A stretch of 64,000 nt of DNA from an archaeon (GTDB taxonomy: Archaea; Undinarchaeota; Undinarchaeia; Undinarchaeales; JBDRKL01), in NCBI GenBank assembly GCA_043814055.1, contig JBDRKL010000010.1, positions 85,433 through 149,432 of the forward strand. The letters are read 5' to 3'. The notes beneath the pieces are model-generated. The model worked only from the letters and a program-made list of their open reading frames with translations, was not told where the DNA came from and made no database searches. Positions 19,398 through 54,127 of the stretch are shown here, piece by piece (the first letter of the stretch is position 1; every line of letters begins with the position of its first letter). The translations under genes were made by a program, and so were the position numbers.

Positions 19398-19529
19398 GGG
19401 GTCGTGGTCTAGTTTGGTATGATACTACCTCGGGGTTGCGTGGGTCGTGAGCATAAGTTGAAATATACTTCCGAGCGACACGCGACAAATAGGTAGTGGT
19501 CGCAAGTTCAAATCTTGCCGATCCCACCA
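19398..19529 (+). tRNA. tRNA-Pro with anticodon-loop intron (GGG with C33, or CGG in shifted register)
   Basis: GGGGTCG/CGATCCC acceptor, GCAAG-TTCAAAT-CTTGC T-arm, CCA; ~55-nt intron with GTTGCGTG/CACGCGAC helix; adjacent to proS. Confidence 0.85.
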
Positions 19530-26536: not shown

Positions 26537-26607
26537 AATTTGTTTTAAATCATATATAATCTCTCGCCCAAGAAACTATTTAAACTTAACAATCGTTAAA
26601 TTTGGGT

Positions 26608-26730
26608 ATGAAATCACTTCACTACGCTTTCGCTTCGTTCAGTCACAATGAAACTTCAGAGAATATAAACAATAAAATTGCTGAAGCTTCATTGTGTTCA
26701 AAGCTGGTGAAGGAGGTGAAACTTTGAAAT
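26608..26730 (+). mobile_element. structured insertion between stranded ATGAAAT and new RBS/TTGAAAT start
   Basis: Hairpin 26644-26696 shared with tRNA-Lys intron; 26697-26730 shared with EF-2 leader. Confidence 0.65.
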
Positions 26731-27089
26731 TCCCGTGTGAAATCATAGTTTGGAAAGTCCTCCCAGCGATACGCGCTGAGATGGCGCGCAACCTTGCGAA
26801 AGAGGGGATGAACCAGAAGGAAATCGCAAAGGTAATGGGCATTACAGAAGCCGCGGTGTCGCAATATGCCAACAAGAAGCGAGCTGCAGAATTCAAGATT
26901 GGCAAGAGTTTTGGCCAGCGTTTCAAGGGCGCGGCAAAGCAATTAAAGGAAACTGGCAGCCCGATACGGACTGTGGAAGTGTGCTGTGAGATATGCCGCG
27001 AGATACGCGAGCAGGGCTGTATGTGCAGTCTGCACAAGGAGAGCTCGGACCAGCCAAAAGACTGCGCGCTTTGCAAAGGAAAGTGCTAG
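26724..27089 (+). CDS. HTH transcriptional regulator with Cys-rich C-terminus
   Basis: PCE.....LPAIRA..A..L...GM.Q.EIA..MGITEAAVSQY; GGAGGTGA RBS before TTG. Confidence 0.85.
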   Translation: MKFPCEIIVWKVLPAIRAEMARNLAKEGMNQKEIAKVMGITEAAVSQYANKKRAAEFKIGKSFGQRFKGAAKQLKETGSPIRTVEVCCEICREIREQGCMCSLHKESSDQPKDCALCKGKC

Positions 27090-36232: not shown

Positions 36233-38422
36233 TTATTCAAGGTAATCGCTTGGCTTTGGCAGGTCCTCTTTGAGCCCTTTCCTCTGCCTGATTTCCTTCA
36301 CGACCTTCATCTGGATTTCCTGCGGGAGCTGCTCAAACCCTGCGTTCTCTGTGCTCCAGAGCACGCGGCCCTCTGTTGCTGAGCGGATATCATTTGAGAA
36401 ACCAAACAATTCAGCCACAGGCGCCTTGGCTGTAATCTCAGTGCTGTCCCCTTCCTGCTGCATGTCCAGAATCTGCCCTCTACGGGACTGCATCTCCTTG
36501 TTCACAGCACCCATGTGCTCGTCTGGAACTCGGATAAAGAGCGTCTGTTTTGGCTCAAGCAATCTCACGCCCGCGGTTAGCATAGCGCCCTTGATAGCGG
36601 AACGCACTGCTGGAATAACTTGTGCCGGGCCCCGGTGAATGGCATCTTCGTGGAGTTTTGTGTCGTGCAGCTTGACCTTTACCCCAGCGCACGATTCATC
36701 GCAGAGCGGGCCTCTCTTCATTACCACCTCAAATGCCTCAATTGCGAGCTCCATAATTTCAGTAAGGTGAACCTCACCCTTGACCATGCTGATTAGCATG
36801 TTCTGGCCGCAGATGTCAGCAACACCCTTTGCCTCGTTTTTGTCAAGTCCAAGCTCCTGGAATTCAGCCAGATACTCCTTCTTCTTGACCTTGCCCTGCG
36901 CAAGCTTGCCCTGGAATATCGCAGTCTGGAGGGGTTGCTCAAGGGGCTCAACTGTTATGTAGAACTTGTTATGCCTGTTTGGGCTCTTGCCCTCAACCTC
37001 AGGCGATGCCTTGTCAATGGTCTCCCTGTAAACCACAATTGGGTCAGAGTGAGTGATTGGAATTTTCTTGTCGTGTTCTATCCTGTACCTCCAAATCTCA
37101 AGGTGCAGTTCGCCCTGGCCGGACATCTTGTGCTCACCAGTGGCTTCGTCAAGCTCAATCTTGATTGCAGGATCCTCCTTTTCTATGTTCCTGAGAACTT
37201 CAACCAGCTTAGGAAGGTCTGCTGTATTCTTTGCCTCAATAGCCTCTGTAACAACTGGCTCTGCCTCGTGGATTGCTTCAAATGGCTCAATTGGATTATT
37301 TGGGTCGCAGACAGTTTCCCCAGATCTTGCTGATTTCAAGCCCATCACTGCGATTATGTTGCCGGCAGGAACCTTCTCAATCTTTGAGCGTTCAGGCCCC
37401 ATGTAAATTCCAACCTGCTGGGTTCGGAAATTCTGACCAATGTTGCACAAGTGTACTTCAGCACCGTCATACAGTGTTCCTGAGAATAATCTGCCTGTTG
37501 CAACATCGCCCGCTTGCGGGTCAATTATCATTTTTGTAACCATTAGGGCGAGCGGACCCTCAGAGTTGCACTCTGCCAATTTTGCCTCCATTTCCTTGTC
37601 GTCACCAGGCCAAATCTGAGGTATCCTGTAAATCTGCGCCTGCTTCGGGCTTGGGTGGTGCTTTACGACCATATCAAGAAGAATCTTGTGAAGCGGTGCT
37701 TTCTTGTAAAGGTTCTGCCATTCCTCTGATGCATAAGAATCAAGAATGTCCTTGAAGCCGAGCCCGAGCTTCTTCATGTGCGGCAAAGAAAGCGCCCACT
37801 TGTGGAACGCTGAGCCGAACATGACAGAGCCGTCATCCACACCAACCTTGAACTGTTCATAGAGCTCTGGTGTGCAGTTCTTGCGGATGAGCTCGTTAAC
37901 ACGCGCTATAATCTTGACAAACCGCTTCTGCATCTCCTCAGGCGTAAGCTTGATTTCCCTGATTAAGCGGTCAACCTTGTTAATGAAAAGAATCGGCCTG
38001 ACGCGCTCGCGCATTGCCTGCCTGAGCACGGTCTCAGTCTGGGGCATGGCGCCTTCAACAGCGCATACCACAACAACCCCGCCGTCAACAGCGCGCATCG
38101 CGCGGATAACGTCACCGCCGAAGTCAACGTGGCCTGGAGTGTCAATCATGTTTATGAGATATTCCACACCATCAACTTCGTGCAAAAGCGAAACGTTAGC
38201 TGCATTAATCGTGATACCACGTGCCTGTTCCTGCTCGTCAAAATCCATAAACAGCTGCTTTCCTGCGTGCTCCTCTGAAATCATGCCTGAGCCGGCGACC
38301 AGGCTGTCCGACAGCGTGGTCTTGCCGTGGTCAATATGCGCTATAATACCAATGTTCCTGATTTTGTCAGGCTTCCACATCAATTCCTTTACCTTAGCAA
38401 TCAAATCTTCTTTTCGTGCCAT
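36233..38422 (-). CDS. fusA: elongation factor 2
   Basis: AHIDHGKTT, RGITI, DTPGHVDF, diphthamide loop HEDAIHRGPAQ. Confidence 0.98.
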   Translation of the reverse strand: MARKEDLIAKVKELMWKPDKIRNIGIIAHIDHGKTTLSDSLVAGSGMISEEHAGKQLFMDFDEQEQARGITINAANVSLLHEVDGVEYLINMIDTPGHVDFGGDVIRAMRAVDGGVVVVCAVEGAMPQTETVLRQAMRERVRPILFINKVDRLIREIKLTPEEMQKRFVKIIARVNELIRKNCTPELYEQFKVGVDDGSVMFGSAFHKWALSLPHMKKLGLGFKDILDSYASEEWQNLYKKAPLHKILLDMVVKHHPSPKQAQIYRIPQIWPGDDKEMEAKLAECNSEGPLALMVTKMIIDPQAGDVATGRLFSGTLYDGAEVHLCNIGQNFRTQQVGIYMGPERSKIEKVPAGNIIAVMGLKSARSGETVCDPNNPIEPFEAIHEAEPVVTEAIEAKNTADLPKLVEVLRNIEKEDPAIKIELDEATGEHKMSGQGELHLEIWRYRIEHDKKIPITHSDPIVVYRETIDKASPEVEGKSPNRHNKFYITVEPLEQPLQTAIFQGKLAQGKVKKKEYLAEFQELGLDKNEAKGVADICGQNMLISMVKGEVHLTEIMELAIEAFEVVMKRGPLCDESCAGVKVKLHDTKLHEDAIHRGPAQVIPAVRSAIKGAMLTAGVRLLEPKQTLFIRVPDEHMGAVNKEMQSRRGQILDMQQEGDSTEITAKAPVAELFGFSNDIRSATEGRVLWSTENAGFEQLPQEIQMKVVKEIRQRKGLKEDLPKPSDYLE

Positions 38423-38507
38423 TTCAAAGTTTCTCCTTTTTCTCCAGCTTTGAAATGCACACAAAGCTGGAGACCTTTATGATGCTTTGTTGTGCCATTT
38501 TTTAAAA

Positions 38508-49884: not shown

Positions 49885-50039
49885 GCTCTTAGATGTTTAC
49901 CGTAGTTATAGAGGCGTCGGCTTTAGCCGAACGCCTCCGACCTTCCTCCGAGGCCAGTCGGAGCCGACTGAGCCAGGAGGGGAATAATGGTAACCCTATC
50001 TAATGCAAAACCTTCTTTAAATCTTTTGCTCTTGGGGCT

Positions 50040-53781: not shown

Positions 53782-54004
53782 GGGCTCGTGGCTCAAGCTG
53801 GTAGAGCATCTGACTCTTAATCAGAGGGTTGAGGGTTCAAATCTCCGCCGCTGCGGACACAATGAAACGCCAGAGATGTAATAAAATTGCTGGCGATTCA
53901 TTGTGAGGATAGCAGGGGGCTTGGTGAAAACCAAGCATTCAGCCTTCGGCTGAAGCCCCCCTATAAAATGCAGCTTCGGACTGAAAATCCCTTCGGGCCC
54001 ACCA
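53782..54004 (+). tRNA. tRNA-Lys(CUU) with 146-nt T-loop intron at 59/60 (53842-53987)
   Basis: TCTGA-CTCTTAA-TCAGA; BHB TTCA-AA|T ... TGAA-AA|T; GAGGG/CCCTT; CCA. Confidence 0.88.
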
Positions 54005-54127
54005 ATCACAATATCGGGGCTTCGGCAACAGCCGAATGCCCTCGGCCTACAAACACGCAAAGCGTGTTGTACAACCCGCTGTCGCGGGTTCGTACCTCCG
54101 CGGCCAGGCGGAGCTTCGGGCCCACCA
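54005..54127 (+). mobile_element. hairpin array ending in a copy of the tRNA-Lys 3' end
   Basis: CTTCGGGCCCACCA at 54114-54127 identical to 53991-54004. Confidence 0.7.

Follow-up and report, generated by a model that had tools for sequence, protein, structure and literature searches.

A short repeated hairpin nested in a tRNA intron and in start-codon leaders of an Undinarchaeota genome

A hairpin that occurs both in the leader of an HTH regulator gene and in a tRNA-Lys(CUU) intron is best explained as a self-complementary mini-insertion of 48-55 bp, present in seven copies, that belongs to a genome-wide pool of modular repeats spreading as DNA and duplicating a variable stretch of their target; we put the probability of this reading at about 0.6. 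Both copies lie in the window, by which we mean the whole 64,000-nt stretch of DNA that was analysed, part of an 82% complete assembly of 979,685 bp in 14 contigs (genome ~0.98 Mb). The closest matches of its EF-2 come from archaeal MAGs (73% and 69% identity), followed by a Candidatus Undinarchaeales MAG (68%). The nearest comparison genomes are from the same order, and all evidence of absence rests on paralogues or on distant orthologues, of the same order or further away. Features of the window are collected in Table 1.

Table 1. Positions of the hairpins, cassettes and genes discussed, numbered from the first letter of the window.
Feature	Position	Strand	Remarks
TATA box TATTTAAA of HTH gene	26577..26584	+	homologue L055: TTTATAAA 24 nt before ATG
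Palindrome TTAACAATCGTTAA, candidate operator	26586..26599	+	L055: TTAACGATTGTTAA, in the same place between TATA box and ATG
Stranded ATGAAAT	26608..26614	+	start of 39-codon upstream frame 26608-26727
Degenerate remnant of cassette hp1	26615..26643	+	aligns to hp1 of C10:26384-26516 and C11:6813-6945
Mini-hairpin, HTH leader copy	26644..26696	+	53 nt: 9 bp, mismatch, 6 bp, A-rich loop
Cassette hp2, TTCAAAG / CTTTGAA	26697..26728	+	GGAGGTGA at 26712-26719 in loop
HTH regulator gene	26724..27089	+	Pfam HTH_3, 24.3 bits; homologues align from residue 1
Second leader cassette, before EF-2	38420..38498	-	ATGGCAC, 69-nt insert, ATGGCAC (7-nt duplication)
Second GC-hairpin cassette	~49908-49963, with flank to 49985		flanked by repeat TGAGCCAGGAGGGG
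tRNA-Lys(CUU) 5' exon	53782..53843	+	
T-loop intron	53844..53989	+	146 nt; intronless orthologues, BHB motif, paralogous intron
Mini-hairpin, tRNA-Lys intron copy	53858..53905	+	48 nt; in apical loop of intron stem, CTGCGGA^GGATAGCAG
tRNA-Lys(CUU) 3' exon	53990..54004	+	includes encoded CCA
GC-hairpin cassette	54006..54113	+	108 nt; ends CTCCGCGGCCAGGCGGAG; directly after tRNA-Lys
Repeat of tRNA-Lys 3' end, CTTCGGGCCCACCAA	54114..54128	+	15 nt; follows GC-hairpin cassette

The two hairpins have the sequences given by an earlier note on this DNA and lie exactly where that note had placed them. The pattern CACAATGAAA-N20-40-TTCATTGTG matches only these two places in the window and none of 100 shuffles. 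As had been claimed, the stems differ by compensation, the inner stem being CTTCAG/CTGAAG in the leader copy and CGCCAG/CTGGCG in the intron copy (two compensatory pairs), and the loop is kept, with the ends AGA...AATAAAATTG common to both copies and 5 nt fewer in the loop of the intron copy. The leader copy folds at -16.2 kcal/mol (z -5.75) and the intron copy at -23.3 kcal/mol (z -8.05), and in neither case are any of 200 shuffles equally stable. A chance origin of the pair is ruled out by the empty shuffles, by seven loci at E <= 9e-13 and by the covariation of the stems. A K-turn or C/D-box identity of the hairpin was likewise rejected by inspection, on a reading of the sequence against consensus motifs: it contains neither tandem G-A pairs nor a 3-nt bulge, and the box spacing is wrong.

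A profile search finds the hairpin at seven loci in the genome, the next match having E = 0.08, and a covariance model recovers the same seven, with 68-81 bits on the sense strand and 42-50 bits on the other. Further covarying copies, for which the earlier note had proposed such a search, are therefore present: in the alignment of seven rows, six of them distinct, 4 of 15 stem pairs are changed on both sides. Stem cells are paired in 98.9% of cases (at most 47.8% in slid controls), and the covariation score of 0.204 (0.091 in shuffles) is reached by none of 500 shuffles. Variants of the outer stem include CACAACGAA/TTCGTTGTG and CGCAATGAA/TTCATTGCG, and the copies measure 48, 52, 53, 54 or 55 nt. 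Since the loop is polar (AGA ... ATTG), every copy has an orientation. Besides the intron copy, three copies lie in mRNA leaders of one type (the window HTH gene, a PorB-like gene and Spt4), one in a different leader type before a TFS/RpoM-like gene, one in a cassette behind an endonuclease IV-like gene, and one ~100 nt past the 3' end of the 23S rRNA gene, in the opposite orientation to 23S. All sites are loops or linkers of other structured repeats, in one case a GC-rich cassette; they have no common motif, and border repeats are of 0-2 nt.

As a discrete unit, the hairpin occurs in one and is missing from the other copy of otherwise homologous hosts. Aligned with its paralogue, the tRNA-Lys intron shows one clean 49-column gap that corresponds to the hairpin (CTGCGGA|GGATAGCAG versus CTGCGGA-hairpin-A-GGATAGCAG). 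Similarly, the hairpin is missing from 26 aligned leader cassettes and present in three, always at the junction of their two constituent hairpins, hp1 and hp2. Beyond this genome, the hairpin pattern matched only nine perfect palindromes in 185,579 representative genomes, all in unrelated bacteria and taken as chance, and nothing in a scan of metagenomes; the covariance model gave, in 40 other genomes, one weak match in the same-order relative G002 (31.7 bits) and one probable false match in a coding region. This weakly similar G002 hairpin (L007 1480-1560) is enclosed by a further stem, AAGCCCCT/AGGGGCTT, and lies immediately 3' of a tRNA. With Rfam 15, only tRNA and 5S rRNA reach the gathering score in the window, and at E <= 1 the region 26550-26780 matches two microRNA families and one snoRNA family with 18-19 bits against cut-offs of 39-70, which we take as noise.

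The intron that carries one of the copies interrupts tRNA-Lys(CUU) after GAGGGTTCAAATC; AAATC is repeated at both intron borders, which leaves an uncertainty of up to 5 nt in the position of the cut. ARAGORN does not call this gene, and its Rfam match covers the 5' part only. By comparison, tRNA-Lys(CUU) is intronless in all four relatives in which it was found among nine loci scanned (G002, G006, G007 and G010), where it is 75-77 nt long and called by ARAGORN as tRNA-Lys(ctt). The intron site itself reads without interruption as GAGGGTTCAAATCCCTTCGGGCCCACC or a close variant in G006, G002 and G007, and in G006 and G002 a tRNA-Thr(UGU) lies near tRNA-Lys, as in the window. The intron contains a bulge-helix-bulge (BHB) motif, GAGGG-TTCA-AAT ... 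TGAA-AAT-CCCTT, composed of the T-stem GAGGG/CCCTT, a 4-bp helix TTCA/TGAA, an AAT bulge on each strand, and then an inner helix TCCG/CGGA, in which one C-C mismatch makes the motif slightly relaxed. A BHB scanner matches it at 53836/53982 (AGGG-TTCA-AAT-CTCC ... GGAC-TGAA-AAT-CCCT; pairs 4/4, 4/4 and 3/4), and a fold forced to the motif has -94.3 kcal/mol against a minimum of -94.7, a cost of 0.4 kcal/mol. On contig C6, an open frame of 185 residues codes for the splicing endonuclease EndA (PF01974, 110.3 bits), which could presumably remove the intron.

This intron also has a relative within the genome. The 85 nt 3' of the hairpin are 87% identical to C12:115368-115451, a T-loop intron that occupies the corresponding position of another tRNA gene, which is interrupted several times and has no ARAGORN call. 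Compensatory changes distinguish the internal stems of these two introns. The tRNA-Lys intron is thus lineage-specific, with a splice motif and a paralogue in a second tRNA. Several other tRNA genes of this genome are interrupted. The region C12:115016-115467 (L087 117-303 and ~320-568) holds two adjacent, heavily interrupted tRNA genes, neither called by ARAGORN; the first has a ~110-nt intron of GC hairpins and the second apparently three introns, one of them the paralogue of the tRNA-Lys intron that has no hairpin. At 19398-19526 of the window there is a tRNA with a ~55-nt intron that has an Rfam match and no ARAGORN call. At C10:28918-29055 (L088 219-356), a tRNA 3' end of ~22 nt on the minus strand is duplicated around an insert, which has a 23-nt hairpin module in common with the tRNA-Lys intron.

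The other window copy sits in what we call a leader cassette, an element of ~75-80 nt at gene starts that is found at ~30 loci (31 profile hits from a flank search; 41 covariance-model matches over both strands, corresponding to ~30 loci). An ATG forms its 5' end, in most cases with a GGAGG or GGTGA of its own ahead of it. The first of its two hairpins, hp1 (consensus GACACAAAGC ... GCTTCGTGTT), is closed by the pairing of this ATG with CAT; the second, hp2, consists of TTCAAAG ... CTTTGAA with the Shine-Dalgarno sequence in its loop, and the ATG of the gene follows directly. The ends of the cassette are direct, ATG...ATG, with no terminal inverted repeat, and the mini-hairpin is made entirely of two inverted arms and a loop. 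In 26 aligned copies, 11 of 21 cassette pairs are changed on both sides (4.8 in shuffles; none of 500 reach 11), and 86.9% of cells are paired against 81.5% in shuffles. Seven of nine hp1 pairs covary, and a 5' ATC is matched by GAT in 4/4 cases. All cassettes are in sense orientation directly upstream of genes, and these genes are unrelated housekeeping genes, among others those for EF-2, transketolase halves, Mrp antiporter subunits, Spt4, a PorB-like protein, NDK and S28e. Moreover, the bases after the 5' ATG match the first codons of the gene's own coding sequence (run sum 29 against 15.4 when permuted, n = 18, p = 0.0002). Tandem dimers of the leader cassette, of one and the same type, occur at C7:65142-65288 and C10:34926-35065, where the internal ATG is ATC and is paired with GAT. 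In 30 other genomes the cassette model gave only weak matches (E 4e-4 to 7e-3), two of which, in G007 and G010, have a similar layout of ATG-hairpin, Shine-Dalgarno-hairpin and ATG.

Leader cassettes have landed on start codons, leaving the old ATG upstream and bringing a new Shine-Dalgarno sequence and a repeated start codon. The orthologues of the HTH gene and of EF-2 that are without a cassette start exactly where the stranded 5' ATG lies in the window. For the HTH gene, the earlier note had taken ATGAAAT, placed ~25 nt after the TATA box, for a stranded and probably formerly leaderless start. The interval between the two is 23 nt, and all three homologues examined (L055-L057, of 16 homologous loci found) begin ATG AAR TTY CCN TGT GAG (MKFPCE), in agreement with that proposal; in the Woesearchaeota homologue at L055 the ATG follows directly on a TTAAC-N4-GTTAA palindrome. 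In the window, the remainder of the gene, TCCCGTGTGAA..., resumes 116 nt after ATGAAAT. The insert had been described as ending in TTGAAAT, and the sequence there is as described, with the TTG start at 26724-26726, but it is not a simple duplicated gene start: it is the conserved end of hp2, CTTTGAA, plus an ATG that is mutated to ATT. The gene thus starts at a TTG within the 3' arm of hp2, and this TTG shares bases with the upstream frame's stop as TTGA. The TTAAC-N4-GTTAA palindrome, conserved at L055 1475-1488 in this distant homologue, is likely an autoregulatory operator of the HTH gene.

The junction of the S7 and EF-2 genes is comparable. At L091 and L093 the S7 stop is followed by 5 nt and the EF-2 ATG (ATGGGA), with no insert, whereas in the window it is followed by 9 nt, ATGGCAC, the 69-nt insert and then ATGGCACGAAAAG. 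Members of this cassette family are also present on two metagenome contigs, one of which (L089) has matching coding DNA that is ~71% identical to this genome. In the metagenome relative at L090, a cassette before L19e shows a 15/15-nt duplication, AAATGAACACACAAA, flanking a 63-nt insert; the L19e gene was not found in the 82% complete assembly studied here. A thyX-like gene of the metagenome relative has a tandem cassette pair with different stem sequences, and its orthologue in this genome is without a cassette. Overall, cassette duplications range from 2 to >15 nt, with the junction microhomologies TGAAAT at the HTH gene and ATGGCAC at EF-2. The proposal that a tRNA intron and a 5' insert stem from one element pool holds with one correction: the hairpin is a guest in two different hosts, namely a T-loop intron family of two copies and a start-codon leader cassette of ~30 copies.

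Landing on a start codon creates a short frame. Among 21 cassettes with ATG or GTG at the 5' end, this frame ends 1 nt before the gene start or overlaps it in 19. These upstream frames comprise 21-26 codons, or 39-42 with the hairpin, and end at TGA, overlapping as ATGA or, in the window, as TTGA; the window frame crosses the hairpin without a stop and reaches its TGA at 26725-26727. Only 1/21 copies has a stop in the ATG frame of hp1, compared with 6/21 in another frame, and the third frame of the cassette meets TGA inside GGTGA. In addition, hp1 length variants within a class differ by multiples of 3 (44 to 35; 45 to 42 to 30). The openness of the frame is weak evidence of translation because it is partly inherited from a stop-free consensus; the short frame through each cassette is likely translated. 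Ribosomes would start at the stranded ATG, read the short frame and melt the hairpins, which may expose the Shine-Dalgarno sequence, so that the ribosome could stop at TGA and re-initiate at the real start.

A third repeat family consists of GC-rich cassettes ending in CTCCGCGRNCAGGCGGAG, of which 32 sites were scored. At 22 of them, the duplicated flank exceeds the 95th percentile of controls: 9-40 nt from upstream, often a tRNA 3' end, recur in the flank downstream.

We regard cassettes and hairpins as probable selfish modular repeats that would persist where splicing or coupled translation neutralises them; in tRNA-Lys, the hairpin would be tolerated in the apical loop of a spliceable intron. 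The stems are kept by compensatory change presumably because the fold is needed for copying or for tolerance. Searches of the 82% complete assembly for a Y1 transposase (PF01797), reverse transcriptase, tyrosine integrase, Cas1, DDE_Tnp_1 and rve gave no hits, and TnpB reached 16.5 bits, below the cut-off; given this completeness, the absence of a mobilising enzyme is provisional. The duplications of 0-2 nt at the hairpin and 2 to >15 nt at the cassettes fit no known transposition chemistry. Copying may proceed by copy-choice, that is, template switching in replication, or by an enzyme encoded outside the assembly: the variable duplications, the junction microhomology and the mosaic modules fit template switching and, equally well, an enzyme in the missing 18%. 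A stronger version, which we hold only tentatively, is that of an undescribed, possibly transposase-free modular hairpin-repeat system of this DPANN archaeon, in which the cassette would target starts through a CAT guide pairing with ATG and convert leaderless or coupled genes to Shine-Dalgarno-led ones, the hairpin would invade cassettes and introns, and the tRNA-Lys intron would represent an observed gain and growth from the pool.

One may argue that hairpin and cassettes are instead a selected cis-acting RNA, a binding site or switch controlling the translation or stability of ~30 housekeeping mRNAs, in which hp2 hides the start and presents the Shine-Dalgarno sequence and dispersal is secondary. 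The compensatory changes that conserve structure in both hairpin and cassette would be expected from such an RNA, as would a Shine-Dalgarno loop that is conserved and a placement at gene starts that is strictly in sense orientation. A canonical copy folds into hp1 and a 10-bp CAUUUCAAAG/CUUUGAAAUG stem that covers the AUG, G-U pairs (5/26 at one hp1 pair) make the fold specific to the sense strand, and the ~71% identical relative keeps the architecture with different stems. Yet the downstream genes have no common function, the orthologous genes of relatives do not have cassettes, Rfam gives no match, and the hairpin occurs also in a tRNA intron that is discarded and near 23S in the opposite orientation. 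Furthermore, some copies are near-identical, with two full cassettes differing at few positions, which indicates recent copying and argues against a regulatory RNA. We therefore consider this explanation unlikely as an alternative, and selected regulation may possibly coexist with the mobile-repeat reading.

Two further explanations concern what the inserts encode or how they are removed. If they were genes for small proteins of 24-42 residues, with the hairpin merely coding sequence, this would account for the open frame that, in nearly all copies, crosses the element from an ATG with a Shine-Dalgarno-like sequence before it, for the alignable peptides of three long copies and for the hp1 length variants. 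However, the same nucleotides are read in two frames in different copies (...SKLLKEVKL* and ...FKAGEGGETLK*), on which the protein-coding reading fails; the differing hairpin lengths (48-55 nt) put the frame out of register, stops interrupt it in the intron copy, and conservation tracks base pairing rather than codons. A small-protein gene is accordingly very improbable. That the HTH insert is itself a BHB intron, spliced from the mRNA to restore a leaderless ATGAAATTCCCG message, is suggested by the direct repeat TGAAAT at both insert borders, by the same hairpin in the tRNA-Lys BHB intron and by the presence of EndA. The scanner that recovers the tRNA-Lys motif, however, gives six candidates in 26570-26790 against 5.8 in shuffles, with none at the insert borders, so that we rejected such an intron in the leader and find it hardly credible.

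The preferred reading, a hairpin that spreads as DNA within a pool of modular repeats, can be compared with several known systems, of which the nearest are the small palindromic repeats of compact genomes and the non-canonical archaeal tRNA introns. Small prokaryotic palindromic or stem-loop repeats include MITEs, REP/BIME, ERIC, Correia elements and Rickettsia palindromic elements. Like these, the elements described here are short, non-autonomous, multi-copy, hairpin-forming and lineage-specific, and they are tolerated in transcribed intergenic DNA and RNA genes where they do little harm. Unlike them, the whole element is one polar-loop hairpin with 0-2 nt duplications that nests in other repeats, and its companion cassettes, which have no inverted repeats at their ends, are placed precisely on start codons, leave the start duplicated and supply a Shine-Dalgarno sequence themselves; in addition, no cognate transposase was found in the 82% complete assembly. 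Classical MITEs are defined by terminal inverted repeats, a target duplication of fixed length and a cognate transposase. The duplications here are of 0-2 nt (hairpin), 2 to >15 nt (cassettes) and 9-40 nt (GC cassettes), and six enzyme families gave no hits and one a score below the cut-off. IS200/IS605 palindrome-associated elements and REP/RAYT have strand-specific subterminal hairpins and a chemistry that gives no target duplication. The likeness to our elements lies in the strand-specific hairpins and in the CAT beside the hairpin, which is complementary to the target ATG; the difference lies in the duplicated junctions and in the assembly's lack of a Y1 transposase (0 hits for PF01797), both of which set our elements apart from IS200/IS605 and REP. 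Small repeats are the subject of a review (PMC3184786).

Two further systems concern translation. In translational coupling, an upstream frame is joined to the next gene by stop-start overlaps such as ATGA or TGAnATG; here, too, a short frame runs up to the main start, with its end at this start or 1 nt short of it, and the main start has its own Shine-Dalgarno sequence, but the frame was created by an insertion that stranded the original start, and ~30 unrelated genes have the same leader. Yeast mitochondria contain GC clusters and translational-bypass 'byp' elements. As in yeast, a compact genome has its genes invaded by many small hairpin modules, which RNA-level or translational processes neutralise, and matching codons flank the insert. 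Unlike in byp, no bypassing is needed, since the insert has stops in all three frames and a re-initiation Shine-Dalgarno sequence, and the host is an archaeon.

For the intron, transposition is reportedly the subject of a paper on Thermoproteales. The T-loop intron resembles non-canonical archaeal BHB tRNA introns in having a splice motif, in being missing from orthologues of relatives and in occupying the same position in two tRNAs; it differs from them in that one copy carries a separately mobile hairpin that is also found in mRNA leaders and beside an rRNA gene. Because the hairpin is common to intron, leaders and rRNA flank, it ties the intron to the repeat pool rather than to a large integrative element. 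Transposition or gain via mobile DNA has been proposed for such introns. The study by Sugahara et al. (2012, PMC3293823) deals with archaeal BHB tRNA introns at non-canonical positions, and the abstract of a 2026 preprint (10.64898/2026.10.13.758758) still calls the arrival of archaeal tRNA introns open. With a lineage-specific intron, its paralogue in a second tRNA and a nested mobile hairpin in one genome, a mobile-repeat origin becomes testable. In the open-access literature, supplements aside, we found no reports of start-codon-targeting miniature elements in archaea, of Woesearchaeota palindromic repeats or of palindromic coding repeats in Methanococcus, and no description of the phenomenon among the papers listed for Undinarchaeota repeats or for start-codon insertions with target duplication. 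Two features appear to be undescribed: one mobile hairpin that is nested in an intron as well as in leaders of mRNAs, and a family of cassettes by which start codons are duplicated and a Shine-Dalgarno sequence is provided.

The cassettes would represent a survival route for insertions where the genome is very compact: having landed on a start codon, they make good the loss of the translation signals that they disrupt, and a single insertion could turn a leaderless gene into a Shine-Dalgarno-led one in one step. There are also practical implications for the annotation of DPANN genomes, as ARAGORN misses interrupted tRNAs such as tRNA-Lys(CUU) and gene callers likely misplace starts at cassette loci. 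Finally, the EF-2 matches at L091-L093 extend over ~2.7-2.8 kb for 728 residues, compared with 2.19 kb in this genome, and this span suggests that the EF-2 genes of these relatives contain an intervening sequence, possibly an intein, that is absent from the genome studied here.
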